DNA from: a virus
Lineage: Duplodnaviria > Heunggongvirae > Uroviricota > Caudoviricetes
DNA: 64,000 bases
Reading direction: 5' to 3' (one strand)
IMG/VR virus record: IMGVR_UViG_3300045972_000219
The stretch's first letter is position 1. Each line of letters starts with the position of its first letter. The notes below the pieces were generated by a model. The model was not told where the DNA came from. It did no database searches and saw only the letters and a program-made list of their open reading frames with translations. Below are positions 571 through 63,178 of this stretch, piece after piece. Position numbers and translations under genes: made by a program.

Positions 571-582
571 AACATTGAATTA
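571..582 (+). promoter_or_regulatory. AR9-type late promoter motif AACA-N6-T(A/G) (representative copy)
   Basis: AACA-TTGAAT-TA upstream of the spike gene; further copies are listed in the findings. Confidence 0.65.
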
Positions 583-606
583 ATCCGAAATTATGTGAGG
601 TATCAA

Positions 607-1617
607 ATGTCTACATCTAGCCTAGCTATGGGTCTTTTAAGGAATTCAATAACCGATAAAGATAAAACAGATAACGTTAGAGAAGTTGGTTTAGATGGTA
701 TAATGAGAGCTAAGGTCATTAAGATAGATGATCCTAAAGCTGAAGGTAGAATAGGGTGTATTATACCAAGACTAATGTTTAAATTCGATCATTCTATACA
801 AGAAGTTGAATCTATGGAGTATGAGGTAGACTCAAGTAAATGGGATGAGTCATCTGAGATACAAGTTGAAGAAACATTAGATACAGTTAACTATATATGG
901 ATGCGCCCATCGTGGTTTGTATTTAATGGTCCACAAGAGAATAATGTAGGTGGCTCTTATCGTGTACCAAGAATAGGTACATGGGTATTTGTATTCTTCG
1001 AAGATGAAGATCCTCAGAAGGGATACTACTTTCCATTCGGTCCAACTAATGATGGAGAAGTAATTAATAATGAAAAGAATGAATCACCATACATAGGTGA
1101 TGTTGAGATGAACCCTCAAGTAGATATCATTAGAGAATACCCTAATGGTACTATTATATATACTGACTTTAATGAAGATCGTAATGAAGTAGTTATTAAA
1201 TTTAGAAATAACCATGTCATGCGTATAACTGATCGTGAAGATAGTAATGGAATTGAATTCCATACACATAATAAGAATTATATTAAAATAGATGACCTTA
1301 ATAACGATATAACTGTTAAAGCTAATAGAGATATTAAAGTTGATGCTGGAAGAGATGTAAGTATTAAAGCAGGTAGAAACATGCAGATTGAATCTCTTAA
1401 AGGATTTATGTCTGTTGCTTCTAAATCTCAGATTAATCTACAAACATCTGAGAGTTCAATTACTCTTAAGTCAGGTAAGGATCTTACTGTTGAAGTAGCT
1501 GCAATAACTAGTCTTAAGTCAACTGGTGCGGTTAGTATTACATCTACTACAAGTGAGATTAGAGAAAGAGCTGCAACTGAACATAAAACTATGGCAAGTA
1601 AAATAAGTCATAACTAA
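607..1617 (+). CDS. baseplate central spike, T4 gp5/VgrG-like OB-fold plus beta-helix (no lysozyme domain)
   Basis: RAKVIKIDDPKAEGRIGCIIP and GGSYRVPRIGTWVFVFFEDEDP match the gp5 OB-fold; the C-terminal half has 8-residue beta-helix repeats (DITVKANRDIKVDAGRDVSIKAGR); a PAAR gene lies downstream; ATG 607 follows GTGAGG. Confidence 0.8.
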   Translation: MSTSSLAMGLLRNSITDKDKTDNVREVGLDGIMRAKVIKIDDPKAEGRIGCIIPRLMFKFDHSIQEVESMEYEVDSSKWDESSEIQVEETLDTVNYIWMRPSWFVFNGPQENNVGGSYRVPRIGTWVFVFFEDEDPQKGYYFPFGPTNDGEVINNEKNESPYIGDVEMNPQVDIIREYPNGTIIYTDFNEDRNEVVIKFRNNHVMRITDREDSNGIEFHTHNKNYIKIDDLNNDITVKANRDIKVDAGRDVSIKAGRNMQIESLKGFMSVASKSQINLQTSESSITLKSGKDLTVEVAAITSLKSTGAVSITSTTSEIRERAATEHKTMASKISHN

Positions 1618-1626
1618 GGATATAAT

Positions 1627-2736
1627 ATGGAATTACCTAAAGTACCTAGACTACCTAACACATCTCTTTTAGGTGATGTACCTAAACTATCTATACCTGA
1701 TACCACTGTATCAGCGTTGAACCCATTACCACCAGTGACTCCACCTGCAGGAGTTACATTATTAGAATTACCACTTAAGGTAGATCTTTTAAGTGGTATA
1801 GGGGTATATAGTCCTACTGCTGCAATAGGTAAGATAGCGGATTCTATACCTAAGATACCATCTATTGCTGCAGCTAAAGATAGTATCAATTATAGTATAC
1901 CTCCATTACCTAAACCACCAGCAATAGATATGACTCCAATTAAAGATTTACAAAATACAGTTAATGGTATAAAAGCTCAAGGCGCAGCCATGATGACTAG
2001 TGTTATGGCTCAAGCTGCAATAGCTATGAAGGCAGTTAAAGATGCAGCTAATGGAGCTAAGACAGCTGCAACAGGGGTATTTAATGATGCAGTATCAGCT
2101 GCAACTACTGCAGCTAACGATGCAACTAAAGCAGCAGCAGACTATGCATCATCATTGACAGACCCTACTGTAACTCCTGAACAGTTACAGGGTTTAAAAG
2201 ATGCTAAAGATGCTGCAGACGCAGCTAAAACTGCCGCAGATCAAGCTAAAGTTGATGCTCAAACAGCATTAGATGCTAAGACTGCAGAGGCTACAAAAGC
2301 AACTACAGATGCTGCAGCTGCAGAGGCTAAAAAGGTTGATGCTGAAAAGAATGAAGAAGATCAGGCTGATGCAATGGATACTGAAAGTGAAGAGGATGAT
2401 GCTGCAGATGAAGCTGCATCTGGTTTGAGTGCATGTGAACAGAAGTTCATATCATTAGTTAAAGAAATAAATGGAAAAATTGATGTATGGCAAGCCGCAT
2501 TTGATAAAAATCTTGCATATGCTGCAAAAGCTAATGATAGCCTTTTTGGTCCAAGTGATCAGGAAAGATTAAATTATTATACTGAAAAAGAAAGACTTGA
2601 TCTAATGGTAGAAGAAGTTAGGTCTCTTAAATTAACATTAAGAGGTCTAGCTGATTGTGCTGGATGGGTAAATGAAGGTCCAAATAAAACTAAAGCTTCA
2701 TTCAGAGCTAAACAATTGGAGGAATCACAACAATGA
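1627..2736 (+). CDS. hypothetical Pro-rich/Ala-rich coiled-coil protein in the baseplate cluster
   Basis: 369 aa ORF between the spike and PAAR genes; Pro-rich N-terminus, DAA/KAA heptad region, acidic linker. Confidence 0.6.
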   Translation: MELPKVPRLPNTSLLGDVPKLSIPDTTVSALNPLPPVTPPAGVTLLELPLKVDLLSGIGVYSPTAAIGKIADSIPKIPSIAAAKDSINYSIPPLPKPPAIDMTPIKDLQNTVNGIKAQGAAMMTSVMAQAAIAMKAVKDAANGAKTAATGVFNDAVSAATTAANDATKAAADYASSLTDPTVTPEQLQGLKDAKDAADAAKTAADQAKVDAQTALDAKTAEATKATTDAAAAEAKKVDAEKNEEDQADAMDTESEEDDAADEAASGLSACEQKFISLVKEINGKIDVWQAAFDKNLAYAAKANDSLFGPSDQERLNYYTEKERLDLMVEEVRSLKLTLRGLADCAGWVNEGPNKTKASFRAKQLEESQQ

Positions 2737-4102: not shown

Positions 4103-4127
4103 TGGATCCTACAGAAGAATAAATTAC

Positions 4128-4190
4128 TCCCCATATCCCTATAAAGGATATGGGGAAAAGTCCCCCGTTATCCCTCGGAGGATAACGGGG
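4128..4190 (+). terminator. two tandem GC-rich hairpins ending the baseplate operon
   Basis: TCCCCATATCC-N7-GGATATGGGGA (4128-4156) and CCCCGTTATCC-N6-GGATAACGGGG (4163-4190). Confidence 0.7.
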
Positions 4191-4358
4191 AATAACAAGG
4201 AGAGAGAACCATGGGCATAGGGGTAATTACAATGCCACGATCTCTAATGTGCTGTTTTTTTTAGTTAAAACTGCCTCTAATGTTTAATGGTAGGTCAAGT
4301 ACTTTTTGAATTAGATATTATATAAATGTTATATATCAAATAAAAAGGAGATAGTGAA

Positions 4359-5270
4359 ATGTCATTCTACTACGAATTAATCGATGTACAGGGTAACAGA
4401 TTAGTTATAAGAACAAAAAGCTATTTTAAAGATTTATCAAGTGCAGTTATCAAGCAACTGATAATTCATAAAGATGAAAGAATTAGTCTTTTTATGTATA
4501 AAGAGAAAGTAGACCCATTTTATACATATGCTAAAGGTGGTGAAAAAGAGGCAAATCCTATAGACCTTAAAGCAGTATATTACACTGATGGAACTTTTGT
4601 TACTGATATAATTAAAGTAATTTTCGATAACAATCAAAATAATAAACCTGCAGCTAAAGAAGAAATAATATTATCTCAGTTAACACGTTTTGAGAATAGA
4701 TTGGTTAAGTTTGATGGTAGAGACTATTACATCAATCAGCTAGCTAAATGTGCTGACTGTGAGAAGATGAACATTCATCTTAAGAAACCTTTAGCTATTT
4801 ATAAAGGTAAAGTTAAAACAATGACTATGATTGTACTTAAAGGTGCTGTACGTCTTTATAAAAATCGTAATATTTACCTATGTTCTAAATGTAATGCAGT
4901 CCATATCATGGGTTTGAAAGATATTAAAGATCTTAAGAAGAATCTTAAGAAAACTAAAAATGAATCTAACACTAAGGAGAATAAAATGGGAATGTTCAAA
5001 AAGAAAAAGACAGAAGTTATTTCACACAATGAAGAGATCGAAGCTTACAACCCTCCGATCAAAAAACCTACTAAAAAGAAAAAAGATAATTCTATTGAAC
5101 AATTATCACTTGGAATGGATGCAATCTGTCCAAAGGTAGATCCTACGATTGATAAAATTAGAGAATATTTAATTAAAACATTAGGTGAAGTATCAACAGC
5201 CTCTAACTCAGATGTAATTAAAGGTTATCTCATGGCGTTTAACGACTTTGAGAAGGCTAGAAAGAACTAA
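4359..5270 (+). CDS. hypothetical protein with possible Zn-binding Cys pairs and a Lys-rich C-terminal half
   Basis: 303 aa ORF, AAGGAG RBS, CADC and CSKC motifs; preceded by GATATTATATAAAT. Confidence 0.65.
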   Translation: MSFYYELIDVQGNRLVIRTKSYFKDLSSAVIKQLIIHKDERISLFMYKEKVDPFYTYAKGGEKEANPIDLKAVYYTDGTFVTDIIKVIFDNNQNNKPAAKEEIILSQLTRFENRLVKFDGRDYYINQLAKCADCEKMNIHLKKPLAIYKGKVKTMTMIVLKGAVRLYKNRNIYLCSKCNAVHIMGLKDIKDLKKNLKKTKNESNTKENKMGMFKKKKTEVISHNEEIEAYNPPIKKPTKKKKDNSIEQLSLGMDAICPKVDPTIDKIREYLIKTLGEVSTASNSDVIKGYLMAFNDFEKARKN

Positions 5271-5346
5271 GTATTTTAGTCTCTAAATAGTAGTATAACA
5301 TGATATTGCTACGTTGTGTTATACTACTATTAAGGAGATTGAACAA

Positions 5347-6009
5347 ATGGCACTAAACTTAATGTCAGCAATCAGGGATGACTTTACTAAAAAGAAACTA
5401 GGTGGCTTTGTAGAATCATATAATATTTCTACTGGCTTTCAGATGATTGATTTTATGGGTGCAGGTCGTGATGCTGAATCCAATGAAATCGATTATGGTA
5501 TGCCATTTGGTAAACAGATTCTTATCATCGGTAAATCAGGTACAGGTAAAACTACTCTAGCTATTCAGATAGGGTGGAATATTGTTGAGCCATTTGAAAA
5601 TGGATCTATTGTCCATCTCGACTTTGAGCGTTCTTCTAAGCGTAATCGTATTAGAACTATTCTCGGTATTGATGAAGCAACATTCAATGAGCGTTACTTA
5701 CACCTCAATGATAGTGACCTCTGTGCAGAAGTTCTGTATGAGCAGGTAAAAGCTATTGCTAAACTAAAACTTGACAATAGAGATAAACTTCTTGTAGATT
5801 ATGAGACACCTTTAGGTGAGACTATCCAGATTCTTCCCCCTACTGTAATTATCGTTGACTCAGTTGCAACAATGATGTCTAAGAATATTACAGATGAAGA
5901 TGAGTTAAGTGGACAAATGTCTGGTTCCGCACAAGCTAGACAAAATAACTCGATCTATAAAAGAATACCTGGAGATTTACTCGAAGCAAATATAATTCTC
6001 ATCAGCATT
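5347..6009 (+). CDS. recA: RecA/UvsX-like recombinase, exon 1 of join(5347..6009,7133..7597), 375 aa spliced
   Basis: Walker A GKSGTGKTT, HLDFERS, Walker B IIVDSVA, MSGSAQAR; splicing restores ILISI|NHITTKI (RecA IFINQIRMKI equivalent). Confidence 0.9.
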
Positions 6010-7132
6010 TAATTTTAGATGCCTTAGAGAAGTAATTCTCTATGAAAAATTGCGTGAATTGCTGGAAACCCCTTAGAGTCATTTAAACTACAACGTGATC
6101 TGTAAAGATGAGCGTGAATGTTTGAAAATTAAATGAATTGGGCAATCAGCAGCGAAGCGTCCTGTATAAATATAACCTCATATCACAATAACAATTAATT
6201 AGAATTTAATTTTATTGGAGGTTATTATGGCTGGAAGACCTGGAATGGTTGTTAAGCATACTCTAGAGAGTGTAAAACAAGAGATATATCAGATGGTTGG
6301 TGATGAGTATACTATACTTTCTGATAAGTATCCTGGATATCATGTTAAAATGGACATAGTTCATAATGTATGTGGACATAAATATGGTATTTCTATGAAT
6401 AATTTTAGACTAGGAAGTAGATGTTACCCATGTCAACAGAGAAAAAATGGTAACAATGCTCTTATTGCTAGAAAAAAAGGATATGATCTAGAGTGGGCTA
6501 AAAAAATGGTTCTTGACAGAGGTGAAGGTGATTATGAGCTTTTAGATACTGAGTATATTAATGTTCATACTAATATGGAATTTAAACATATTGAGTGCGG
6601 GCAAATTTATACTGCAACACTAAATAATTTTCGTCAAGGAACAAGATGTCCTTATTGTAAACGAGAATCTACAGGTGAGTTGCATACAGAACTAGCTCTT
6701 AAACATCTTAAATTAAAGTATGAAAAACAAAAGACCTTTCCTAAACTAAAAGGAATTAGATCTTTAAGATTCGATTTTTATCTTCCAGATTTAAATACTG
6801 CAATTGAATATGATGGATTACAGCATTTAGCAGAATCTCATAAATGGCATGGTAATAGAACCATTGTTAATGATGAGATAAAAAATAAATTCTGTGAAGA
6901 TAATAATATTACTTTAATAAGAATTCCTCATACAAAAAGAACAATTCAGGCAATAGCTAAATTTATACAAGATGAACGTTCAACGACTACCTCTTAGGAG
7001 GGTACACTCAAGCGAGTGGAAGTGCGCAACACCCTAATCGAAAGATGGGTGAAGATATAGTCTGCTCTATATAGAAATATATAGCTGTCGAAAGACGGGA
7101 TAGATACTAGCGAATCTATCTGAACATACAGG
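6010..7132 (+). mobile_element. group I intron in recA
   Basis: The 5' exon ends in U and the intron ends in G; core elements AATTGCTGGAAA (P), AATCAGCAGCG (Q), GTTCAACGACTAC (R), AAGATATAGTC (S); IGS GAUGC pairs with exon GCAUU; removal keeps the frame. Confidence 0.92.
6227..6997 (+). CDS. intron-encoded homing endonuclease, Zn-ribbon repeats plus Vsr/DUF559-like PD-(D/E)XK nuclease
   Basis: Two H..CG......NF..G.RC..C repeats; RFDFYLPDLNTAIEYDGLQH...KNKFCEDNNITLIRIPH; GGAGG RBS before ATG 6227. Confidence 0.8.
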   Translation: MAGRPGMVVKHTLESVKQEIYQMVGDEYTILSDKYPGYHVKMDIVHNVCGHKYGISMNNFRLGSRCYPCQQRKNGNNALIARKKGYDLEWAKKMVLDRGEGDYELLDTEYINVHTNMEFKHIECGQIYTATLNNFRQGTRCPYCKRESTGELHTELALKHLKLKYEKQKTFPKLKGIRSLRFDFYLPDLNTAIEYDGLQHLAESHKWHGNRTIVNDEIKNKFCEDNNITLIRIPHTKRTIQAIAKFIQDERSTTTS

Positions 7133-7639: not shown

Positions 7640-7687
7640 CTACATATTAATTTTAAGTATTGAAATTCTATGTAAGGAGAAATTTAC

Positions 7688-8812
7688 ATGCCATATCTTA
7701 AAGGAGTAGATTTAGAAGCAAGGAATCATAGTTTCCTCAGCGAGGAGTTATTATGCCCTAACGTATCAAAGACTGACTTATCTCGTGCTAATATGTTCTG
7801 CAACCATGTGGTACAGACTGTAGTTCCAACGTATGGAGATACTCCGCAGGTGTTTACGGGATTTGAGAATCAGGTAGGAGACTATTCTCATTCGATGGTT
7901 AAATTCGATAAGAAAGTTAAATTGATTCATATCATTAAGAAAAACGAATGTAATGGAATGTATGTATTCCAAGAGGTAAAATCGAAGAAGATACATGTGG
8001 TTGAGAATAAGACTCATGGTAGAATTACAGAATACTATGGCTATCAATTGAATAACGATAAAATACATGGTATGACTGTAGGTGAAACCATTGATGAGGG
8101 AGAGATTGTAGTACATTCAACATCTCATGATGATATTGGCAATCTTAGGTATGGAGTTAATCTTAATACTATCTACTCAACTATAGATGGACTGAACTAC
8201 GAGGATGCTGTTGTAATTTCCGAGTCAGCTCAAAAGAAGATGGCTTATGAAAACGTAGAAGAAGTAGTTGTCACTATAAATAATAATGATATCTTAGTTA
8301 ATTATTATGGTGACAATCATAAATTTAAATCGTTTCCAGACATTGGAGAAGCTACTAGAGATGGTATATTATGTGCTAGAAGACGAGTGAATTATGAATC
8401 TGCATTTGTTGAGCTATCCAATAGATCACTTAAATCAATAAACTTTACTAACGATAATATCTTCTATAGTAAAGGTAAAGTTGTAGACATTCAAGTCTAT
8501 ACAAATATCGATGAGAGTATTCTAGAGTCACATGTGTATAATAATCAAATCCTTAGATACCATAAAGAAGAACAAGAATACCACAATAAAGTGGGTGAGA
8601 TTCTTGGTGGACTTATTAAAGGTAAGACATGTGATAAACACTTTACACCTGATGTATCTTACATCTATAGCCGTAGCAAGGCTATGATAGGTAAAAAGAA
8701 ATGGACTTATGAGAAGTCCGAGTTCGATGGAGTAGTTATTAAGTTTACAGTAGCATATACTGAGAATGTATCTATTGGAAGTAAGATATCTAATAGGTAT
8801 GGTGGAAAGGGT
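7688..8812 (+). CDS. rpoB: jumbo-phage multisubunit RNA polymerase beta C-terminal subunit, exon 1 of join(7688..8812,9806..10396,11379..11606), 647 aa spliced
   Basis: SRANMFCNHVVQ, GLNYEDAVVISES (GYNFEDS motif), IGSKISNRYGGKG (GDK..GRHGNKG motif); probably the non-virion enzyme (phiKZ gp71-73/AR9-type), by inference from size. Confidence 0.88.
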
Positions 8813-9805: not shown

Positions 9806-10396
9806 GTAATTTCAAAAATTCTACCTGATAAGGATATGCCTACAACAGTTGAAGGTATTAATGCAGATGTTGTGTTATCGTGTCTAGGTATTATTAACAG
9901 ACTTAATCCTGCATCTTTGTATGAGCTAGAATTATCTTTTATGGCAAGAAAAGTTTCAGAGAGAGCTAGTACATTAAATAGTACTACTGAAGCATCTGAG
10001 TACATTCTAGACTTCATAAATAGAATAAATCCTACTCAAGCAGAATCATTTAAAGAAATGCTAGAGTCATTAGAACCAGAGGTATTTGATAAAGCAATTA
10101 TGGAGATGATAGAGAGTGGAATACCTATTCATCAACCTCCATTCTTTGGTAATATGACTCTTGATCAGTTACATAGTATGTATAAATATTATGGATTTGA
10201 ACCTGATCATTTTAAGAATATCGAGACTCCAATGATATTAGGTAAGATGTACTTCCTAATCTTAAAGCATAATAGCTCAAGTAAGTTCAGTGCAAGGTCT
10301 GCAAGATACATTAACATGAAAGAAACTCCATCTAAAAATACGAGAGATTATAAAGCAGGTCAAGCTCTATACTCGACTACTCCTGTAAGATTGGGT
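9806..10396 (+). CDS. rpoB: RNAP beta C-terminal subunit, exon 2
   Basis: VISKILPDKDMP...ADVVLSCLGIINRLN (D...NPLG..SRMN), ILGKMYFLILKH..SKFSARS, TPVRLG. Confidence 0.9.
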
Positions 10397-11378
10397 AAAC
10401 TATTGCCCCTTTAAACAGTAATGTTTAAATGTAAATTCCTTTAATTGCTGGAAAATCCTAATAGGATAATCAGCAGCGAAGCACTATCATAATCAGAGGA
10501 AAGGAACAATTTATGTTCAAACCCTTTGATTGGACTGAAACAGATGAATTGTATTTAAGAAAATACCGTAGTAAAATGACACCTAACCAGATTGCAAAAG
10601 TTTTAAATGCGAACATTTATCAGATTAAAAGTCATTTAGTAGAATTAAGTTTAAGTGACAAACAATACTCTATATCTTTACCAAATGAAATTTGGAAAAA
10701 GATAAATGGATTTGACTATGCAGTTTCAAATTTTGGTAGAGTTAAATGTTTAACTGATGATTGCTATGGTCGTGATTTAAAATCATGGATAAGTTCAAGC
10801 CACGGTTATATACAAATTATACTTGTTAAAGATGGTCAGAAAATAAATAAGCGAGTACATCGTCTTGTAGCTGAAGCATTCATAGTGAATCCAAATAATA
10901 AAGATCAAGTGAATCATAAGGATGGAGATAAGACAAATAATCACTTAGACAATCTAGAATGGATGAATCAAAGTGAAAATCAACTCCATGCTTTTGAAAA
11001 TGGTCTACAAATTGGAAAGCGTACTCATTCAAAGGTGGATGAAAATTTAGTACATAAAATATGTAAACTAATTGAAAATGATATTGATAATAAAACAATT
11101 ATCAAACAATTAGAGCTAGATACATATTTATCATCACCTAGAAGTTTACTATCTAGAATTAAGCTCAAGAGAGAATGGACTACAATTAGTAAAAATTATA
11201 ATTTCTGATTATGATAGTGAACGTTCAACGACTAGTGCATAGCACGTACACTACAAGCTAATGGTAGTGGAAATGGGGAACATCCTAATGGGATGAAGAT
11301 ATAGTCTGGTCTGCATGGTAACATGCAGCTGCAGGTAATGCTGCGGGTATAATCTTGCGAATTATATTGAACACAACG
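10397..11378 (+). mobile_element. group I intron 2 in the RNAP beta gene
   Basis: Exon ends GGT and intron ends G; P/Q/R/S elements present; splicing restores RLG|EQE (RFGEME motif). Confidence 0.92.
10513..11208 (+). CDS. intron-encoded HNH homing endonuclease (Myb-like HTH, NUMOD4, HNH_3)
   Basis: DWTETDELYL, YAVSNFGRVK, VHRLVAEAFIVNPNNKDQVNHKDGDKTNNHLDNLEW. Confidence 0.9.
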   Translation: MFKPFDWTETDELYLRKYRSKMTPNQIAKVLNANIYQIKSHLVELSLSDKQYSISLPNEIWKKINGFDYAVSNFGRVKCLTDDCYGRDLKSWISSSHGYIQIILVKDGQKINKRVHRLVAEAFIVNPNNKDQVNHKDGDKTNNHLDNLEWMNQSENQLHAFENGLQIGKRTHSKVDENLVHKICKLIENDIDNKTIIKQLELDTYLSSPRSLLSRIKLKREWTTISKNYNF

Positions 11379-11606
11379 GAGCAAGAACTTATATGTCTAA
11401 TGCTTCTTCAAGATCCAAATGAACTATCAAGATTCATAAGGCAAACATCATCTAATCGTGATGATAGAGAAGCTTTGATAAGAACTCTATTAACTGATGA
11501 TGTTTATAACATGGAAAAGATTGAAATAAGTGATGATACTGAATCACATACTATGTCTATCCTAAACTCATACTTAACAGCTATAGGTTTGAAGTTAAGT
11601 ATCTAA
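11379..11606 (+). CDS. rpoB: RNAP beta C-terminal subunit, exon 3
   Basis: EQELICLM...ILNSYLTAIGLKL matches the beta C-terminus (EME..AL ... L..EL..LG). Confidence 0.85.
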   Translation, partial: EQELICLMLLQDPNELSRFIRQTSSNRDDREALIRTLLTDDVYNMEKIEISDDTESHTMSILNSYLTAIGLKLSI

Positions 11607-11656: not shown

Positions 11657-11668
11657 CATATTATATCT
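11657..11668 (+). promoter_or_regulatory. putative early-type phage promoter in front of the ubiquitin-like operon
   Basis: CATATTATATCT; the same (C/G)ATATTATAT core occurs at 547-559(-), 4314-4327(+) and 53584-53596(-), each about 30-40 nt or less upstream of a gene start. Confidence 0.5.
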
Positions 11669-11699
11669 AAGTCATATAAACTAAATTAAGGAGGATATA

Positions 11700-16184: not shown

Positions 16185-16778
16185 ATGAATCCTTTTGGAG
16201 AAGTTATGAAGATTCATACTACTGGTAAAGTGGTGATTCCTCAAGAGATAGTTGGATTGCTTAACGATATCCATCGAAATTTACCTAATAAAAATGTAGA
16301 GTTTGGGATCTACTGTAATTCGGTACTTGATTTAGAGACGTTTACTGTAACTATAGAGCTTAATAAGAGCTTCATACCAAAACAGATAGTATCTAGTGTG
16401 ACTATTGAGTTTATTGAAGGTAAATCGTTTGTAGGTGATGACTTCAATACTGTAATACATCGTCATCCTGAAGGAGTTAATACTTTTTCCAATACAGATA
16501 AAGAGAGTATTAATAAAAATTGGGATGTATCGATACTATTTATACCGCCCTATAAATTTCCACAGGCTATTATAAATATTGACATCACTCCTACAAGTAG
16601 ATTGCAAATTCAAGCATCTGTTGAAATTGCACCTTCAGAGGAGGATGAGAATCTAATCAATGTTATAAACAGTAAGATAGGTACTGGAAAAGCTAATAAC
16701 ATCCATGAAGATGATATTGATTATCCTGATCCTCCCAAGATAGCTAAGAAACCATTTATACCAAAGTCTTGTAGTTAA
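16185..16778 (+). CDS. JAB/JAMM (MPN+) metalloprotease
   Basis: N-terminal catalytic Glu (NVEFGIY) and an exact H-x-H-x7-S-x2-D motif (HRHPEGVNTFSNTD). Confidence 0.85.
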   Translation: MNPFGEVMKIHTTGKVVIPQEIVGLLNDIHRNLPNKNVEFGIYCNSVLDLETFTVTIELNKSFIPKQIVSSVTIEFIEGKSFVGDDFNTVIHRHPEGVNTFSNTDKESINKNWDVSILFIPPYKFPQAIINIDITPTSRLQIQASVEIAPSEEDENLINVINSKIGTGKANNIHEDDIDYPDPPKIAKKPFIPKSCS

Positions 16779-16818
16779 CATACCATTAGGTATTAAATAC
16801 AACTACAGAGAGCCAAAT

Positions 16819-17130
16819 ATGAAACAGAGACTACTGCACAATGGTTCTAAAGTATTTAAGGTATCTGATAAAGAACTAGAAGAGTTCAAGATACTAATGA
16901 ATAAAAAAGAGTCCTTAGATAGTGTAATAAAAACAGTAGTGACTGAGTTAATGAAATTAAAACAAGAGACTAGACTTGAAGAACAGGAGTTTTGGACTAA
17001 TATCTTTAATAAGTTTGAAGTTGATCCAAGATGTGTTGTCAAGCTAGACCCTAAAAATCAAGAGTTGGAAGTAATAGGTATTCCTGATGGAATAAGTCTT
17101 AATGAATTTGAGTCAGATGTAATACATTAA
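16819..17130 (+). CDS. hypothetical coiled-coil protein, last gene of the Ubl operon
   Basis: 103 aa ORF followed by a terminator hairpin. Confidence 0.6.
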   Translation: MKQRLLHNGSKVFKVSDKELEEFKILMNKKESLDSVIKTVVTELMKLKQETRLEEQEFWTNIFNKFEVDPRCVVKLDPKNQELEVIGIPDGISLNEFESDVIH

Positions 17131-17165: not shown

Positions 17166-17235
17166 ACTAACTGCAACTAAAAAATATCTAAAAACATTTA
17201 TTTGTCTTATACTATAATAACTAGGAGATGAAGAT

Positions 17236-19461: not shown

Positions 19462-19511
19462 CTACAATTGTCTATCAACAAACATTTGTAACTACAATAA
19501 TGGAGGATTTT

Positions 19512-23683: not shown

Positions 23684-23779
23684 TGAAAATCTCCTTTCGT
23701 AAGCTAGTAAAACATAGCAATTATATGTTCAAGCACATATTAAAAAATAGTAGATAAACTAAATTTTAAGGAGTAATAA

Positions 23780-25644: not shown

Positions 25645-28600
25645 TTAAAAATACTCTCCATCCAGACTGCCTAAGCCAACTACAATAGTCTTTTCTATAC
25701 TATCAATTTTTTGTTGTAGTTTATTGTCCTCATCAGTACGGATAATAATCTCGTCTTGCAAATCTACATCGTAATTAGCATTGTACTGGTAAGGTATGAC
25801 TGCTGGTACACCATCAGTAACTACTAATTTCCATGCTTTACTTGGGTTGACTGAGTCCGGAAGTATATGATGACCGTATAAACTATGCTCTCTATCAATA
25901 GCTGATTGAAGACCTGTTGGTTGAACATCATCTGGAGTGTAAGGAACTAAACTAAGGATACCATCTGCAACAATGAATCTGTAACGAGCATTTGGATTTC
26001 TAGTGTCTTGGAAGACATGTCTACCAACAGTATCATGCTCATTATATAGTCTCATCATATTATCAAATGACTTATCTACATAACCATATTTTTCTTCAAA
26101 TTCTAATATATCGCCTGGATTTATAGGATTGAGTAAACGAATTGTAGTTGGATTTAACTCAATATAATCACCAGTACCCCCATTAATACTAGGTATCCAC
26201 TTATATCCTGTTTTATCATTACGAGTATAGTATACCTCAAGGCTTTTATTATTAACTGTATAATTTATACCTTTAGGTAACACTAGTGTACTTCCAGCAG
26301 GATATCCTTGACGTACTTCAAAATACTCTCTGAATTTTAAATCAGATACATATGAGTTATTTTGTGATTTGTATAATACGCCATATGAATAAAATCTACC
26401 ACTTCCATTCCAAGTGAATTTAAAATAGAGTTTGTCAAATCCTTCAGCACGATTGACTATTCCGCTAGTAATAGATCCTTCACTACATACACTAGTATCA
26501 CATCTATACCATGTGACAGTATCAAATGAATACTCAGTCTCTATTTGGGAGGACGCATCACACTCAGCATGGAGATAAAATGCTCTAAACACTTTATCTA
26601 TATCTTGTAATTCATTATCTTGAGTAACATCTTGTGTTATTAATACGGATCCCTTCTTACCCTGCCAGTAACTACCCATAGAGAAGAATGAAGGTATTGG
26701 ATCACCCTCTGCAGTTACTTCATGGTCTTCAGTATTAAAACAATCAAAATAACACATTCCAAATGAAGATGAATTGAGAAGAGTCATATATGAAAATTCT
26801 TCAGTACTACCACCATTACCATTATCTACTGAATTCGCAGCCCAATAGTCTGCAAGATATTCAGCAGGTATTCTACCATGCTCATTTAGTACTGGATACT
26901 TTTGAAAGTCGCTCCAACCTGTACCAGATGTCTGAAGGGAGTCATATACTATATCTCCAACTACATTTAATGAACTAATAGTTACGCTAGTAAGTTTATT
27001 ACGTCTATTAAATGCTAATAATTCAATTTTCAGATCTTCAGTTGAAGCATTAGATATAATTTCTGAAAATTCACTTCCATCATTTACCTGAAATGTAATA
27101 TTACCATTAATTCTTTTTATTACAAAAGAGCAATTATTAGCTACTCTCGGTACTGAAATAGATTCTGCATTAGGTCTAGATAACTCTATTTGTCTTAATG
27201 CAGGTTTACCAGTTACTAATGCTTTAAGAGTGTAGTAATTATCTTTATTATCTGATAATCTTACTCCATATCCAGCATCATATTCATCATTCACAACAGA
27301 AGAATCACTTACATTAACCTGTAATACAAAATCTCCACAAAGTTTAAACTTCGTTCCACAAGTAATTTCTCCAGATTTAGTACCTACTAGATCGTTAGAT
27401 ATTACTAGGTTTGGAATGTTATTTATTACTTTTGGAGATGCTATAAATCCATCACTAGTTATAGCCCCATCAGATACAGAAGACCAATATTTAGTATTAA
27501 GTTTGTTAAACCCATCTTCATAATAATTAAAAGTTTCATTTATACCTTGGGTAAAGACAACCTTATCAACTGATCTGAATTTGAAATCATCAATATCAAT
27601 TGAGAAAGACCCAACTGAACTCTTACCATGAATCCAAACAGTTGCAGGATAGTTGTTAAATTTATCAGTAGTGCAGAGATGTATAAATGATACTTTTGTA
27701 GAGTTATAGTAAAATAATGATACTAAACCATTAACTCGTTTAATCTTAAATCTACCATCTTTAAGATCATCAGTTAAGAATATTTCAGCTATCTGATTAT
27801 CATCTAAAACTACTCTGTACGCTTTACCAAAAGGATTTTGAGGTAGTGATTTTATATTAGAGTCAGATACAAACCTTATATCTAATACTTGATCACCAGC
27901 TTTAACTCCAAATATAAAAGTATTATTATAAGTCTTAATTGGTTGACCGATATTATCGAGAGTTTCAAGAGGAGTTTGACTATGATTTAAGAAATCTATC
28001 TCTTGCTCAAAATCACCAATAAATTCAAACTGTGATAATGTTTCCGCACTAGTAAAGCCGAGATCTAATGATTCATCTGTATAGATGTGACCCTTATTTG
28101 ATCTAACTAATATCTGTCTTGTTGAGGTGTTAGTATGTTTCCAATATTCAGAATTAAGTGGAGAATCATCTACACCAGTAAAATCATAGGGAGCAATACT
28201 ATATGGTCCAGTCCATACCCTAGTAGCTAATCCATTAGGAGTACCTACTAACTGTAGAGCATGGTGTGAATCATTTTTATGTGTAGCTACTAGAACTGCA
28301 TCTTCAGGCCAGTCAGTGTCAATAATTAAATTTGACATCATCGTGGTTCCTAATGGATAATCTAGTCCATTAGTATGAGACGAAACCAGTGTACCTTCAG
28401 GCACATTAGTCTGGTAGTCTTCCAATAGCACTTCAAATGTCCTTGTGGAGAATGGATCTAATGGATCCATTGGACCAACAACTAGATCATATTTACCATT
28501 TGGAGCGTAAAAGTCTACTAGACCATCATAGTCCGTAAAGATTGGCTGAGGTATAGGATTACCGTCTCTATCATAAATATCAGCTTCTACAAGTTCTTCA

Positions 28601-31051: not shown

Positions 31052-31179
31052 GATACACCCCCACAAAAGAATTTTTTAATTACTAAAAAAATAATATTTA
31101 CATATATTAGGTGCGATTACGGTATTTCATATCTGAACATTCTATTGGTTTAATTTGATAAATAACAAGGAGAAAGATT

Positions 31180-36184: not shown

Positions 36185-36205
36185 TAATTTAAAGGAGAAA
36201 TACAC

Positions 36206-38322: not shown

Positions 38323-38367
38323 TATTAACAAATCATTGAATTAAACTAAATAGGGAAAGGATAATAA

Positions 38368-41774: not shown

Positions 41775-41820
41775 TAAACATTTAATTGATAAAGCTGTAT
41801 AAATACAAGGGGGCATATAT

Positions 41821-48745: not shown

Positions 48746-48786
48746 TTAAACAATTCATTAGTAAATTAATGAAGTAGGGGTATCTT

Positions 48787-53637: not shown

Positions 53638-53934
53638 TCATTTAATTATAGAATCAACAACAGTTGGATTTTTCAATGCCCATTTTACTATAGCAATTGC
53701 CCATCCAATAATAGGTGGTATGACTGTAGCAGCAACAATACCAATAGTTACAAACAAACCAAATTTAACTTTAAGTGTATTAGACTCTAGCTGCATTTTT
53801 ACTAATTTATCTTGAATACTTTGGAGCATTACACCATGCTCTCTCAGCTTTTCTAGTACAAATTTAGCAGATGAAGACCACTTATAATCTTCATTTACTT
53901 CGGGAATTTCCTCATCTTCATTACGTCTACTCAT
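53638..53934 (-). CDS. holin-like/XhlA-like small membrane protein
   Basis: WSSSAKFVLEKL, coiled coil, then one C-terminal TM (FGLFVTIGIVAATVIPPIIGWAIAIV). Confidence 0.5.
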   Translation of the reverse strand: MSRRNEDEEIPEVNEDYKWSSSAKFVLEKLREHGVMLQSIQDKLVKMQLESNTLKVKFGLFVTIGIVAATVIPPIIGWAIAIVKWALKNPTVVDSIIK

Positions 53935-55316
53935 TGGATAACATCCCCCTTGAATTGGCGTTGGAGGATTTCTGGTAGTCTTCCATCCATTGAATAATTT
54001 TTCATTAAATAATTCAATAATCTTTCTTCAGCAGGTACTAAGATATCCTTACAATTTTGACTCTCACATCTAAGTTTATTAGTATCACTCAATGCTTTAA
54101 GTACTGAACAAATTTCTTGTAAAAAATCTAAGTTAGAGTAACCAAAGGTAACTGTTCCCACAAAGTATTCATCATGATCAAGTAAGGGAGCCATAATGAC
54201 TCGGATAGAAGTGTAGTCATTATATAATATACCATCCTCTATAAAAATTGAAGGCTGAAGAGTTTCTATTATCTTACGTTTAGCAATAACGCAATTATTA
54301 CCAAATGAACCACATACACCTCTATCAGAGTTCATTTCAATAATTTCTTCCATAGTCATACCAATAGCTTTATGTCTATTGACTTTTAAGAAATTAGCAG
54401 CATATTGATTAAGAAGTGTGATTTTATCTTCAGCATCTCGTATGATAATAATATTAGGTATAGTATTTATAATTCTACTTAATAATGAACTAGTTTCTTT
54501 ATGATCATGATCAATATGCATTATTTCAATTTCTTTTTCAGTTAGAAGTTCTTGATATCTAGATAATTCTTCCTGAGTGTGAGATAGACCGTGGAATATT
54601 TCTTTTATTTCATCTATCTTATCATCAGGATTCTTAAAGAATTTAATATCTGCAACTTTAATAGTTATGTATATAAGAACTATAAATATTGCTATTATAA
54701 GTCCCATATAAATATACTGAAATTTAAATAATATTGAAAACTCTTTCATTGCATCGGCTTCAGAAATTGATTGAATCAGAACTACTTTATAACGTGTATT
54801 ATCAGTTGTATTGATATAATTTGAAACAGTAGATGGTATTACTTTCCATTCAACCCATCTTTTTCCATCATAACCCAACCAACTTAAATTCTGCTCTGAA
54901 TCATTACCAGACATTATAGAGTTGATAAGTAATTCATGATTAATATTGTATTCTTTTAATACACTAGATAACGATTTACCTTCATATTGAGGGGAGTTAT
55001 TGGAGTCATGTATAATTTTACCAGTTGTATCAAGTAACACAGCAAACATTATACTTGAATTACCCGAAGTTTTTTGTAAGGCAGTATGATTGAGAATTTT
55101 TGATAAATCACTATAACTAATTGTAGTGTCATTACCATGATACTCTTTTATTTCTTCTTGAATAATATTTGCTGCAGTGACTAAATTTATTTTAGCTTGG
55201 TTTCTAGCACTATATTCTACTGAAGTAGATAGTATTTGGTTGAATAGATTCTCAGTGAATAATATGACTACACATACGGATAAGTATGCCAGTATTTGAA
55301 ATATTCGATAATTCAT
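53931..55316 (-). CDS. membrane sensor: TM, Cache-like domain, TM, coiled coil, PAS; no output domain
   Basis: TM1 near the N-terminus, FAVLLDTTGKIIHDS, TM2 (YMGLIIAIFIVLIYITI), PAS (IINTIPNIIIIRDAEDKITLLNQYA...IG.T.EEI; APLLDHDEYFVGTVTF); only ~55 aa follow the PAS. Confidence 0.8.
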   Translation of the reverse strand: MNYRIFQILAYLSVCVVILFTENLFNQILSTSVEYSARNQAKINLVTAANIIQEEIKEYHGNDTTISYSDLSKILNHTALQKTSGNSSIMFAVLLDTTGKIIHDSNNSPQYEGKSLSSVLKEYNINHELLINSIMSGNDSEQNLSWLGYDGKRWVEWKVIPSTVSNYINTTDNTRYKVVLIQSISEADAMKEFSILFKFQYIYMGLIIAIFIVLIYITIKVADIKFFKNPDDKIDEIKEIFHGLSHTQEELSRYQELLTEKEIEIMHIDHDHKETSSLLSRIINTIPNIIIIRDAEDKITLLNQYAANFLKVNRHKAIGMTMEEIIEMNSDRGVCGSFGNNCVIAKRKIIETLQPSIFIEDGILYNDYTSIRVIMAPLLDHDEYFVGTVTFGYSNLDFLQEICSVLKALSDTNKLRCESQNCKDILVPAEERLLNYLMKNYSMDGRLPEILQRQFKGDVIQ

Positions 55317-55354
55317 GTTAAACCTCCTAATAAACTGTTACACTTATATATAAT

Positions 55355-58476: not shown

Positions 58477-58510
58477 AAAATAAGGGAGATTTCTCTCCCT
58501 TATTTTTTTT
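58477..58510. terminator. bidirectional terminator
   Basis: AAAATAAGGGAGA-TTTC-TCTCCCTTATTTT plus T-run between convergent genes. Confidence 0.75.
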
Positions 58511-59160
58511 TAGTCATCCATTTCAATAAAGTTCTTAATAGTACCTTCACCTGAGATAGTTTTAAGTTCAGTTCTTAACTTTAATATATCACGATTATTA
58601 GTTTCAGCCTTATTTTCATTTGCAACTTTAACCATTCTTCGGACTTTAGCCGCTAAACGTTTATCTAGGTACTTTGTATACTCAATAGCAAATTGTCTAA
58701 TATCTCCAAAGACTGAACGGATATCTATTTCTAGTTTCTCATTGTGATACAGTTCATGCATAGTAGTTGATAAAGGAACTAGACCTATTAAGTTACGATA
58801 GTGAAGCTCTACTACTTCTTTACATATAGCCATTTGAGATAGAGATAGTCCTTCTTTCTCATGTTTTCTATGAACCGCATCTACTATATCATATAAAGTA
58901 AATGGAAAATGATGTAGCTCAATAGTTGACCATTCACCTGATTTTACCTCTTGCAATATAGCACAAGTAGACATATCCATTTCTTTCTTAAGAAACTGGA
59001 TGTAATTCTTCATCTCTAAAGAACCACGTATAAGAACCTCTAATTTTCGATAGTATTTAGTTCTAGTGTCGTCATCTTCAAGCCAATCTATTATTAGATC
59101 GACTCCACCATAACCAGTTAACTGAGGAAGATTATTTATATCTATAGATGTATTTGACAT
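58510..59160 (-). CDS. HNH-like (beta-beta-alpha-metal) protein, paralogue A
   Basis: CAIL..IELHHFPFTLYDIV...GLVPLSTTMHELYH. Confidence 0.55.
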   Translation of the reverse strand: MSNTSIDINNLPQLTGYGGVDLIIDWLEDDDTRTKYYRKLEVLIRGSLEMKNYIQFLKKEMDMSTCAILQEVKSGEWSTIELHHFPFTLYDIVDAVHRKHEKEGLSLSQMAICKEVVELHYRNLIGLVPLSTTMHELYHNEKLEIDIRSVFGDIRQFAIEYTKYLDKRLAAKVRRMVKVANENKAETNNRDILKLRTELKTISGEGTIKNFIEMDD

Positions 59161-59213
59161 AACCGTAGATTTATCCTTTAACAGTAGATTAATATATTTT
59201 ATAAGGAGTTTAT

Positions 59214-59576
59214 ATGACTTACAATTTTACATCGATTCTAACTGAAATGGAAGAGGAACATAGCAAAATTACTACTATGATATCTAATTTAAATGACTCT
59301 AGTTCTTTTTTAGATATGATGCATTATATGATGAAACATTTTGATCATGAAGAATTGGTGATGTCCGATATAAAGTATGATCTATTACTACATCATAGGA
59401 ATGAGCATAGTAAAATATTAAAAGAATTTTGGAATAAACATGATATGAATGATTATGAAAAACTTAGAGTATGGTCTGCTAATCAAATAAAATTACATAT
59501 CACAATGAATGACTATTATCTAGTTAAATTTATAAAAGATAAGATAGAATCTAATCAGCCTCTTCTTCATCAGTAA
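59214..59576 (+). CDS. hemerythrin (bacteriohemerythrin-like di-iron protein)
   Basis: Complete ligand pattern H...HxxxE...HxxxH...HxxxxD: EEHSK, HFDHEE, HHRNEH, HITMND. Confidence 0.9.
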   Translation: MTYNFTSILTEMEEEHSKITTMISNLNDSSSFLDMMHYMMKHFDHEELVMSDIKYDLLLHHRNEHSKILKEFWNKHDMNDYEKLRVWSANQIKLHITMNDYYLVKFIKDKIESNQPLLHQ

Positions 59577-60282
59577 ATATCTCATCATCTGGAATATTTG
59601 GGTTGAGAAGTATTATACCATTAGAGTCTGCAGATAATTCAAACTCACTGAATTGCGGTATATTGAGTCTTAGCTTTTGAGTTGTAGGTCTAAGAATATC
59701 ATTAGCTGAATATGGTTTATTTTCTTTAGCATGAGTTATTAGTGCCTCAATTTTAGCTATATGATCCTCAGTAAAGCCGTCTTCATACTCTTCCACAAAT
59801 TCAGCTACTTTACCAAATACTCTATCAATGTTGATATGTACCTCTCCTTGATGAGCTAGTTCATGGACTGTTTTAGATAAAGGGATTACTCCTACCTTTC
59901 TCTCCCAATGTAGTCTAAGAACTTCATCAGCTACATCGAATGTAGTGATAGGTACACCTTCTCCAAATTTTTTTTCTGCAACTATCTCTACAATTTCATA
60001 TAGAGTTAATGGATGATGATGTATTTCTATAGTTGCTTCTTCAGTAGTAATATTTTCAAAGAAGGCACATGTCTTTAAATGAGATAAAATATATGATACG
60101 AACTCTTTATATTCTATAGATGTACGTACTAATCTCTCAGTAGACTTAATGAATCTCTTAAAATATTTATCATCAAGTGTTTCTTTTATAGTATTCATCA
60201 ACTGAGTACCATATCCGTTTCCAGATAGTTCTACTCCTTCATTCGTTTCTTCAGAAACTATGTGATCTAATCCTGTACTCAT
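59551..60282 (-). CDS. HNH-like protein, paralogue B
   Basis: CAFF..IEIHHHPLTLYEIV...GVIPLSKTVHELAH. Confidence 0.55.
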   Translation of the reverse strand: MSTGLDHIVSEETNEGVELSGNGYGTQLMNTIKETLDDKYFKRFIKSTERLVRTSIEYKEFVSYILSHLKTCAFFENITTEEATIEIHHHPLTLYEIVEIVAEKKFGEGVPITTFDVADEVLRLHWERKVGVIPLSKTVHELAHQGEVHINIDRVFGKVAEFVEEYEDGFTEDHIAKIEALITHAKENKPYSANDILRPTTQKLRLNIPQFSEFELSADSNGIILLNPNIPDDEIFTDEEEAD

Positions 60283-60339: not shown

Positions 60340-61074
60340 ATGATAAATTCTAATCAACGAAAACAGATTGAAGGACTAGTATTGACTACAATGGATAAGT
60401 TAGATCCAACTGGATACAATACTAAACAGTATAAAGAAATGTTTACAGGTATGTCAAATGAAGCATTCTCTAAATATATTGAGAGTATTGCTACAGATGA
60501 GGATAGTAACTTCTACTTATCAATCCTTCCTTGGGAAAATGAACCTTCTCTTATAGATATTAAAAGTGCTGCAGATTTCTTAAAAATAGATCTTGATGAA
60601 TATGTATACTTCCCTGATCAAAGTACTACTGACGGTAAGTCAATAAGGACACCTAAACCTGTACCTGTTGGATACCTGTATATGAGAAGGTTACAGCAAG
60701 TTTTAATGAAGAAAAACTCACAGTCTATAGATACTAAACAGAGAAATCCAATTACAGGTCAGGTATCTGGTGATAGTAAAGTAGCAAGAGATTCCGATAG
60801 TGAAAACTATGCTCTCACAACTATTGGAGCTGATGAGATTCTTAGAGAATTACATGGTCCAAGAGCAGATAATATTGGTGCTATGAATGATATGTATCGT
60901 GATATATCTATGCAAGGATATGTTCGTAATGCAGATCTGACACAAGATATAGGAAAGAAAACAACTCTTAATACATTTGATATTTATATTATGGGTGCAG
61001 GTCTTAAGTCAGACCTTCTTACCACTGGTGATAAAATGTATTGGACTAAGCGTAAAGAAGCTGAACAAAAATAA
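60340..61074 (+). CDS. second RNA polymerase beta C-terminal fragment (probably the virion RNAP; phiKZ gp149-like)
   Basis: PVPVGYLYMRRLQQVLMKK..RNPITGQ..ARDSDSE..L.E matches the beta VG..Y..KL.H...K..AR..Q..GQRFGEME region; distinct from 7688..11606. Confidence 0.75.
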   Translation: MINSNQRKQIEGLVLTTMDKLDPTGYNTKQYKEMFTGMSNEAFSKYIESIATDEDSNFYLSILPWENEPSLIDIKSAADFLKIDLDEYVYFPDQSTTDGKSIRTPKPVPVGYLYMRRLQQVLMKKNSQSIDTKQRNPITGQVSGDSKVARDSDSENYALTTIGADEILRELHGPRADNIGAMNDMYRDISMQGYVRNADLTQDIGKKTTLNTFDIYIMGAGLKSDLLTTGDKMYWTKRKEAEQK

Positions 61075-61390: not shown

Positions 61391-61392
61391 GT

Positions 61393-61424
61393 TTTCCCCT
61401 ATACCCATAAAGGTATAGGGGAAA
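61393..61424. terminator. bidirectional terminator
   Basis: TTTCCCCTATACC-CATAAA-GGTATAGGGGAAA between convergent genes. Confidence 0.75.
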
Positions 61425-61426
61425 TT

Positions 61427-62251
61427 TTATACACCATCGTCTATTTCTTCCATTATATCATCTGCGGCTTGTTCTAAAGCTGATGGACCATTATCTCTTC
61501 TTCGTCTTTGACCGCTACTACCTGAAGTAGTTGGATCAAATTGCAGTCCATCTCCTAAACTAGTCAACGATGTAGCATGAGATAAATTGATATCTTCATC
61601 TAGAAGCATTCCATTATCTTTTACAAATGGATGTGCAATATACTCTACTTCTGATTTCTTTCTACCACGAGATTTAACTCGTTTAGAAGTAAGATATACT
61701 TTACCAGTAGATGCCTGTGTCTCAATAAAGTTAATAAATACATAGTCTGCATTCTCAATCATTAGCTTAGACTCACCAGTATGACTAATACCAAGCTTTT
61801 GTCCAATATTATTCTTTTTAGATTCTAATGCTTGCTCAATAGCTTTAGATGCATCACGATTAAGCTGAGAAGCAGAAACAAAAGGAATCTGTCTTTTCTT
61901 TGCAATAGTTGAAAATTCATCAACTACTGTACCTAAGTCGATACGGATATCACCAGTATACTCAACTGGCATAATACGTTTAATATAATCGTGAACAACC
62001 ATTCTAACTTCATAACCTTCAAGTTTAAGGTCATCAATCATATTATCTATATCTGCAGTATTTATACTACGAGATGGTCTATATCTAAAGAAAGCAGTCA
62101 TACGAGTAGGATCGTCATGAACCCAATTAGATTCTCCAAAACGTTCCATTACTCTTGTGGAACCTTCTAGGTCTTTTAGTTCAGCAGGATCATCCTCGCC
62201 CTTAATTATAGACCAGATTCTTTCATTAGTTTCATTGACATCATTCTCTTG
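61427..62251 (-). CDS. dnaB: DnaB-like replicative helicase, exon 2
   Basis: QENDVNETNERIW, MVVHDYIKRI (H2), IPFVSASQLNR (H3), IENADYV, KRVKSRG (H4/Arg finger). Confidence 0.9.
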   Translation of the reverse strand, partial: QENDVNETNERIWSIIKGEDDPAELKDLEGSTRVMERFGESNWVHDDPTRMTAFFRYRPSRSINTADIDNMIDDLKLEGYEVRMVVHDYIKRIMPVEYTGDIRIDLGTVVDEFSTIAKKRQIPFVSASQLNRDASKAIEQALESKKNNIGQKLGISHTGESKLMIENADYVFINFIETQASTGKVYLTSKRVKSRGRKKSEVEYIAHPFVKDNGMLLDEDINLSHATSLTSLGDGLQFDPTTSGSSGQRRRRDNGPSALEQAADDIMEEIDDGV

Positions 62252-63178
62252 CAGTTATGTTCATATAGATTCGTTAGATCTATACCGCACCATTATGTGC
62301 AGCTATGACTTTCATCATAGACCAGACTATATCTTCATCTCAGAGAGATGCTCTCCATTTCCCCTCACTTGAGGGTACTCCCATTATAGGATAGTCGTTG
62401 AACGTCCTACAAACTGTTTTACATTTCTCTTACGTGTCCAGTGATCATCACCTTTAGGCATATTTATTAAACCATTATCATGGGCATGTTGCATATTATA
62501 ACTACTCGATACCCATTCTAAATTCTCCCAATAATTATTAAGCTTATTACCATCTTCATGGTTAACTTCTGGCTCATTATTAGGATTGTCTATAAATTCT
62601 AGTGCTAAAAGACGGTGAATATTTCTGTTCAGCGTTTTAGTTCCAAGCTTAAACTCTATCTTATAATATCCGTTTTTGTCAACTCTACTTCTAAGAATAT
62701 TACCTCTTTTTTTATTACGAACTTCACCATGATCACTAACTTCATAATCTGGAAGCTCTGTAACAGTACGCCATTCTCTATCTTCAAGAGTAATATTCTG
62801 TAGTCGATTTAGTTTCTTTCTAACTTTTAGTTGACATATTGCATCAGCGGTACTACCAAGATGTTTAGCGAGTTCAGCATTAGATAAATGTAAATTATCC
62901 TTAATAAACAAAATATCTTTTTCTGTCCATTTAGTTACAGCCATTTTCCATTTAGTTGAAATATCCATTTATATTCTCCTTAATTATTTGTTATAAAATA
63001 AGGAGAAAGGAAAATGACATACAGTTGTAGATTCGCTGCTGATTGCCCAATTCTTATAATTTTTAACATTCACGCTCACTATCACTAGTCACGTTGTAGT
63101 TTATAAGACTCTAAGGGGATTCCAGCAATTAGAAGAGTTTTCATATATGTATCACTACATATAGCACCCAAGTTATTA
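62252..63178 (-). mobile_element. group I intron in dnaB
   Basis: Exon ends ACU and intron ends G; P/Q/R/S elements on the minus strand; splicing restores VLYVT|QEN (H1a motif) in frame. Confidence 0.9.
62384..62968 (-). CDS. intron-encoded HNH homing endonuclease (Myb-like HTH, NUMOD4, HNH_3)
   Basis: KWTEKDILFI, YEVSDHGEVRN, IHRLLALEFIDNPNNEPEVNHEDGNKLNNYWENLEW. Confidence 0.9.
   Translation of the reverse strand: MDISTKWKMAVTKWTEKDILFIKDNLHLSNAELAKHLGSTADAICQLKVRKKLNRLQNITLEDREWRTVTELPDYEVSDHGEVRNKKRGNILRSRVDKNGYYKIEFKLGTKTLNRNIHRLLALEFIDNPNNEPEVNHEDGNKLNNYWENLEWVSSSYNMQHAHDNGLINMPKGDDHWTRKRNVKQFVGRSTTIL

Follow-up and report, generated by a model that had tools for sequence, protein, structure and literature searches.

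We analysed a window of 64 kb, 37% of a 171,491-nt contig, from the uncultivated phage record IMGVR_UViG_3300045972_000219 and found that a 12-nt box, AACA-N4-ATT(A/G), is strongly concentrated immediately upstream of its genes. The box is very probably a late promoter read by the phage's own non-virion RNA polymerase (nvRNAP), which resembles that of Bacillus phage AR9. The statistics of this tight form, its register relative to the AR9 late promoter, the presence of nvRNAP genes, the membership of the phage in the AR9 group and a second, early-type box all count for such an AR9-type late promoter. What would be new here is a slightly extended late consensus, the AR9-type promoter system itself being already known.

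Identification of the late-type box

A preliminary description of the window had pointed to 13 matches of the looser AR9 pattern, AACA-N6-T(A/G), as candidate promoters in front of genes. All 13 were recovered at the coordinates given, 10 on the plus and three on the minus strand, and each lies on the same strand as the gene that follows it. For the statistical evaluation about 70 genes were called and an upstream set was assembled from the non-coding DNA (at most 120 nt) located 5' of each start, 3.7 kb in total, while dinucleotide-preserving shuffles of both strands served as the null for the whole window and codon shuffles as that for coding DNA. The enrichment over shuffled background that had been proposed as a check was found for gene-upstream DNA, where 12 copies of the loose pattern stand against 2.4 expected (5.0-fold, p=8e-6), but not for the window as a whole, in which 82 copies were counted on both strands and shuffled sequences gave more (130.6 +/- 10.8). 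Since the loose pattern is weak and not enriched window-wide, the earlier claim rests on the position of the sites. We also considered whether coding DNA specifically avoids the loose motif and rejected this, since control permutations were depleted too.

The sites share more than the loose pattern demands. If the last base of the 12-mer is numbered +1, the presumed start, a T is found at -2 in all 13 of the sites listed earlier and an A at -3 in 11 of them, neither base being required by the pattern. The resulting tight form, AACA-N4-ATT(A/G), has 14 exact copies in the 128 kb of two-strand sequence, of which 12 fall in intergenic DNA (6.4% of the sequence) and 13 lie at most 80 nt 5' of a start codon on the same strand. 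Eleven copies were found in the upstream set against 0.41 expected (p=1e-12), and the form is rarer than expected inside coding sequence (1 vs 8.1 in codon shuffles). In the pipeline that was also applied to the control phages, its upstream enrichment was 24-fold. When 147,456 gapped dyads, each consisting of a 4-mer, a gap of 0-8 nt and a 3-mer, were scanned without bias, AACA-N4-ATT ranked first (p=8e-12), above Shine-Dalgarno words. One-mismatch variants of the tight form showed no upstream enrichment (7 vs 5.6 expected). Two of the tight copies, 16777(+) and 25715(-), were absent from the earlier list. The end of the box is separated from the start codon by 12-39 nt; leaders of this length, starting just before the ribosome-binding site (RBS), are consistent with initiation at the final A or G, two bases that are about equally frequent at +1. 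At least six of the boxes come after strong hairpins, some of them within 0-10 nt.

Comparison with AR9, phiR1-37 and phiKZ

In AR9 the late consensus, AACA-(6N)-TA/G with the transcription start site as its last base, marks 94 of 118 non-early start sites (PMC5312081). These promoters are read by the nvRNAP holoenzyme containing gp226 (PMC5312081, PMC5449584, PMC9209446), which recognises 3'-UUGU-5' at template-strand positions -11 to -8, its activity being lost when T replaces U at -11 or -10 (PMC9209446). The preliminary description had thus given both the consensus and the deoxyuridine (dU) requirement correctly (PMC5312081, PMC9209446). The box in the window is like the AR9 late promoter in having AACA at -11 to -8, T at -1 and A or G at the presumed +1 with the same spacing, in lacking a -35 element, and in its location, behind terminators and ahead of genes that are structural or continuously expressed. 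The upstream enrichment of the loose form is similar as well (5.0-fold in the window, 5.6-fold in AR9), and the beta-C subunits of the two nvRNAPs are orthologous, though only about 39% identical. It differs from the AR9 promoter in the bases next to the start: within the upstream set, A at -3 is found in 10 of 12 boxes in the window and in 10 of 20 in AR9, T at -2 in 11 of 12 and 8 of 20, respectively, so that near-fixed bases stand where AR9 has only an A/T preference. It is these near-fixed bases that make the box findable by sequence analysis alone. Furthermore, the +1 base is mostly A in AR9, whereas A and G are balanced in the window.

As controls, 50 kb each of AR9, phiR1-37 and phiKZ were run through the same pipeline, together with a pool of 53 metagenomic beta-C relatives; the metagenome scan for relatives had returned 62. 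Upstream enrichment of the loose form was 5.6-fold in AR9 (p=2e-9), 5.9-fold in phiR1-37 (p=1e-5) and 3.7-fold in the pooled relatives (p=8e-32), in which the tight form reached 11.7-fold, and not significant in phiKZ (1.4-fold, p=0.33). AACA-N5-TTA and AACA-N6-TAA were among the top words of the unbiased dyad scan in the metagenomic relatives, while the same scan of phiKZ gave no AACA-like or early-type words. The phiKZ system is alike in that this jumbo phage, too, has two split multisubunit RNA polymerases, and its late element, located at the start site, is likewise very short. It is unlike in using another late motif (TATG) and another specificity subunit (gp68) and in showing no enrichment of the AACA box; moreover, the beta-C subunits of phiKZ-like phages are only ~24% identical. 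A side observation concerns phiR1-37, for which the transcriptome study gave no late consensus according to the 2017 AR9 paper (PMC5312081): at 150-200 kb of its genome AACA-N6-TAG is among the strongest upstream dyads, nine of its 15 copies being gene-upstream (p=2e-9).

The early-type box

A second box, containing CATATTATAT, has the form (C/G)ATATTA-N7-G and is present in nine copies in the window, five of which are gene-upstream, with a near-constant spacing of 43-45 nt to the start codon (p=9e-6). These are a CATATTA-N7-G at 545..559(-), 43 nt before gene 91-516; a GATATTA-N7-G at 4314..4328(+), 45 nt before gene 4359-5270; a CATATTA-N7-G at 7643..7657(+), located 3' of a 15-bp hairpin and 45 nt before the nvRNAP beta-C gene; a box at 11657..11671(+), 3' of a terminator and 43 nt before the operon starting at 11700; and one at 23736..23750(+), 44 nt before gene 23780-24154. 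The early promoter that the virion RNA polymerase reads in AR9, annotated AAATATATATTAT-N6-G, shares with it the core ATATTA(T/A)-N6-G, and so do the early promoters of phiR1-37, in which a box likewise precedes the nvRNAP beta-C gene (g261). In both phages early boxes are placed after terminators, as in the window. The conserved stretch is shorter than in AR9 and phiR1-37, however, its first base is C or G and it is without their longer AT run; the consensus is still rough because only five or six copies are available. Words of the TATATTAT type are the strongest upstream signal in the unbiased dyad scan of the metagenomic relatives, and both boxes dominate the upstream signals in phiR1-37 and in the 53 metagenomic relatives. 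In the AR9 scheme the virion polymerase makes the non-virion polymerase, and an early box ahead of nvRNAP beta-C is as expected from it.

Phage identity and RNA polymerase genes

Judged by its genes, the window is part of an uncultivated jumbo phage of the group of AR9/PBS1, phiR1-37 and S6, with two phage-encoded multisubunit RNA polymerases. Megablast of 21 kb gave no close phage relative. Open reading frames (ORFs) 7688-8851 and 9803-10414 match "RNA polymerase beta subunit" families of jumbo phages (phrog_3295, E=1e-70 and 1e-29). They contain exon 1 (7688..8812, +) and exon 2 (9806..10402, +) of nvRNAP beta-C, corresponding to AR9 residues 7-374 and 375-577 and collinear with AR9 across the intron without a gap. 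A third exon is probably located at 11355..11606(+), where position and size fit and no significant match was obtained. The best tblastn match of beta-C is AR9/PBS1 (38.8% identity, E=1e-70), followed by phiR1-37 (35.5%), the Staphylococcus S6-like phages and Listeria phage LPJP1 (~33-35%) and phiKZ-like phages (~24%). A piece of the virion RNA polymerase beta subunit is encoded at 60340..61074(+) (phrog_3233, E=1.7e-43), with best matches in the AR9-like Bacillus phage vB_BsuM-Goe21 (49%), LPJP1 (43%) and phiR1-37 (37%, g203, a structural protein/RNA polymerase beta). One subunit each of the non-virion (beta-C) and virion (beta) polymerase sets is therefore found in the window; the other three nvRNAP core subunits are not in these 64 kb.

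In a beta-C tree the window falls inside a 55-row group comprising AR9, S6, LPJP1 and phiR1-37, from which the RSL2/FLC9 outgroup is split off with 100% support in the SH-like approximate likelihood ratio test (SH-aLRT); phiKZ gp74 was unusable as outgroup, its branch being very long. Within the group the window sequence clusters with two metagenomic proteins (66% and 56% identity). Additionally, homologues of the proteins 29525-30871(-) and 58510-59160(-) occur in 21 phage records and no others (10 from Staphylococcus, 8 from Bacillus, 2 from Yersinia and 1 from Listeria, covering AR9/PBS1, S6-like phages, phiR1-37 and LPJP1), and these same 21 records are the ones with a gp226 homologue. As in AR9, the gene of the UvsX-like recombinase is followed by those of beta-C and the NAD-dependent ligase, and phiR1-37 has the same order from beta-C to ligase. 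The proposal that the phage shares the promoter logic of AR9 is supported by the AR9-type nvRNAP beta-C, the virion polymerase beta piece, the group-restricted genes, the gene order and the AR9-like early box.

Proposed function of the boxes

By analogy with AR9, the non-virion polymerase together with a gp226-like subunit would read the template complement of AACA at -11 to -8 and initiate at the final A or G of the box, which would give leaders of 12-39 nt. Boxes directly behind terminator hairpins would re-start transcription for structural, lysis, replication and intron-endonuclease genes, while (C/G)ATATTA(T/A)-N6-G would serve as early promoter for the injected virion polymerase and drive, among others, the nvRNAP gene. 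Promoter function, start sites, timing and the assignment of a polymerase to each box are inferred from this analogy.

Several observations weigh against this reading. The window-wide scarcity of the loose pattern is common to control permutations and hence non-specific. No homologue of gp226 was found in the 64-kb window with tblastn and two family profiles. Late-type boxes precede replication and nucleotide-metabolism genes as well as structural ones, and the label "late" is borrowed from AR9, where genes of the former two classes are continuously expressed. Finally, the backbone of the beta-C tree is without resolution within the group, so that it does not tell whether the lineage falls within the range spanned by the known dU phages or beyond it.

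Uracil or thymine

Whether the genome contains dU was the second suggestion of the preliminary description. Cultured members of the group with analysed DNA (PBS2, AR9, BpSp, phiR1-37 and S6) have dU DNA (2020 review, PMC7598289), and because of this we consider dU somewhat the likelier state of this genome too, the placement of the phage in the group raising its likelihood. Word-index searches with gp226 alignments (7 and 131 sequences) returned only AR9-like proteins and none from this genome, and in none of the metagenomic relatives was a gp226 homologue found at 10 kb or less from beta-C.

The best surviving alternative, possible although rather unlikely, is that the box is an AR9-type late promoter in a thymine genome, with a specificity subunit that tolerates T and with the bases at -3 and -2 discriminating phage from host DNA. 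In its favour, V206 of AR9 gp226 excludes the thymine methyl group and a V206G mutant accepts T at -10 (PMC9209446). An exhaustive profile search recovered 473 clusters of the gp226 family (at 50% identity) from public metagenomes, in which the T-x-Y-S-D-x-V-I-W helix is well conserved, and the residue at the V206 position is V in only 62%, and V, I or T in 73%, of 123 representatives with an intact 2.1bis motif, and G, A or S in 6% of all 138 motif-bearing sequences. The box itself, AACA-N4-ATT-R, carries about 14-15 bits compared to about 11 in AR9 and is thus ~3 bits richer, and with a consensus sharper than that of AR9 a uracil-independent variant is conceivable. The 64-kb window, i.e. 37% of the contig, was found to contain no deaminase, dUTPase, thymidylate synthase or recognisable inhibitor of uracil-DNA glycosylase; the missing dU-pathway genes would fit thymine DNA, yet thymidylate synthase and dUTPase are missing as well, and the analysed cultured members of the group all have dU DNA (PMC7598289). 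That the lineage belongs to the AR9 group but has thymine in its DNA, the start-site bases of the longer box rather than uracil keeping the polymerase off host DNA, is a speculation that we regard as doubtful. If it were true, the gp226 system with its 473 clusters would include a sizeable uracil-independent branch. As an observation on the family itself, roughly one quarter to one third of the representatives have another residue (K, P, A, S, R, G and others) in place of the valine at the V206 position, which hints at members with other base preferences.

Whichever base the genome contains, two further explanations compete with a late promoter read by the AR9-like polymerase. That the host RNA polymerase reads the box with a phage or host sigma factor, as in the case of T4 gp55 or SPO1 gp34, appears very improbable: a compact single-element promoter does resemble the T4 late promoter, but no sigma-like protein was detected among the window ORFs scanned with Pfam or PHROGs, the host-type -10 and -35 hexamers (TATAAT, TTGACA) and TATAAATA show no enrichment in the gene-upstream DNA of the window, the box agrees in every base and in register with the element that the AR9 nvRNAP binds, and it co-occurs with nvRNAP genes in relatives while not being enriched in phiKZ with its different specificity subunit. 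Scarcely more credible is that the box acts in the RNA, as a processing site or as a translation element of the leader, or that it is an artefact of base composition. It is near ribosome-binding sites, and intergenic DNA is AT-rich. Against this stand the several copies directly 3' of terminators, which transcripts from upstream should not reach, the variable spacing to the start codon (12-39 nt), the lack of enrichment of one-mismatch variants, the negative phiKZ control and the conserved C in third position, for which AT-richness does not account.

Genes preceded by late-type boxes

The putative late promoters in front of structural genes include the first box of the window, an AACA-N4-ATTA at 571..582(+) that precedes a baseplate-like gene (607-1617, PHROG baseplate match), and the box at 31136..31147(+), at the head of a structural operon (31180-38245). 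Large ORFs in the middle of the window encode tail fibres and other structural proteins, and several of them have a box of their own behind a hairpin: 38327..38338(+), immediately 3' of a hairpin, precedes the gene of an 1111-aa tail fibre; 41777..41788(+) abuts a 17-bp hairpin and precedes the gene of a 919-aa tail protein; and 48749..48760(+), 3 nt 3' of a 17-bp hairpin, precedes the gene of an 1106-aa tail fibre. On the minus strand, the copy at 25704..25715, named 25715(-) above, lies within the 3'-terminal part of gene 25645-28710, at a distance of 79 nt from the tail-fibre gene that follows (24198-25625); it is the sole exact tight match inside coding sequence and probably represents an internal promoter.

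Among the boxes in front of other genes, 5297..5308(+) precedes exon 1 of the UvsX-like recombinase (5347-6009) and 16777..16788(+) precedes gene 16819-17130. Two boxes are TTTG variants: 17193..17204(+), located 3' of a 12-bp hairpin, precedes a 57-aa ORF (17236-17409) followed by the NAD-dependent ligase (17412-19418), and 19477..19488(+), 3' of a terminator with a T-run, precedes an operon with ribonucleotide reductase. Furthermore, 55328..55339(-) comes 10 nt after a 21-bp hairpin and precedes gene 53931-55316, 59180..59191(+) precedes gene 59214-59576, and 23718..23729(-) precedes a 45-aa lipoprotein-like ORF (23546-23683). An orphan exact tight copy at 4245..4256(-) lies in a 256-nt intergenic region and has no convincing downstream gene. 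This gene-free stretch, 4103-4358, carries the orphan together with the early-type box 4314-4328(+) and is possibly an antisense or small RNA unit.

The 45-aa ORF 23546-23683(-) has a signal peptide and a lipobox-like LAC motif in addition to its own late-type box and RBS, and could encode a small lipoprotein, e.g. an outer-membrane spanin component. A match to Rz-like spanins was also found in the window (weak, E ~4e-4). Together, the Rz-like match and the lipoprotein-like ORF weakly suggest the diderm host that had been proposed earlier.

Introns, endonucleases and other observations

Four insertions bearing HNH endonucleases were observed, at 6010-7132, 8813-9805, 10403-11354 and about 62150-63175, all of them in essential genes: the first splits that of the UvsX-like recombinase, the next two that of nvRNAP beta-C and the last that of a DnaB-like helicase. 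Rfam at gathering threshold returned nothing in the window, the first three insertions giving sub-threshold matches to group I introns, and a short conserved core (…GGGCAATCAGCAGCGAA…) is common to all four. The HNH ORFs starting at 6227 and 62968 have their own late-type box, whereas those at 8945 and 10513 do not. The box at 6190..6201(+) lies within the putative UvsX group I intron in front of the HNH endonuclease ORF 6227-6997, and that at 62981..62992(-) precedes the HNH endonuclease ORF 62384-62968, which splits the helicase gene. In Bacillus phage BpSp the annotated beta-C gene ends at 394 aa and is followed by a gap of ~350 nt; as this is near the position of the first beta-C intron of the window, the insertion site may be shared.

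The region 20501-23491 encodes a ribonucleotide reductase barrel-domain protein followed by a separate 238-aa TSCPD-domain protein. The ribonucleotide reductase of AR9 is of class Ia with NrdI, so that this part of the nucleotide metabolism differs from that of AR9. The ORFs 58510-59160(-) and 59551-60282(-) are paralogues that lie side by side and belong to phrog_12252. This family is confined to the AR9 group, and the known phages also carry two copies of it each.

Implications for uracil-DNA phages

Transcription of the AR9 type, in which a sigma-like subunit reads the template strand and demands uracil, has been studied in few cultured phages, mostly of Firmicutes. The window would extend its two-promoter, two-polymerase logic to a distant uncultivated lineage. 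A review from 2020 stated that the late promoters of such phages are not predictable bioinformatically (PMC7598289); contrary to this statement, the late box of the window is sharp enough for prediction from sequence. The two boxes can serve as ready-made operon maps for the annotation of such genomes. Given the fact that the same boxes are dominant in 53 metagenomic relatives and that the specificity subunit forms hundreds of clusters, uracil-DNA phages may be far commoner than the isolates suggest.

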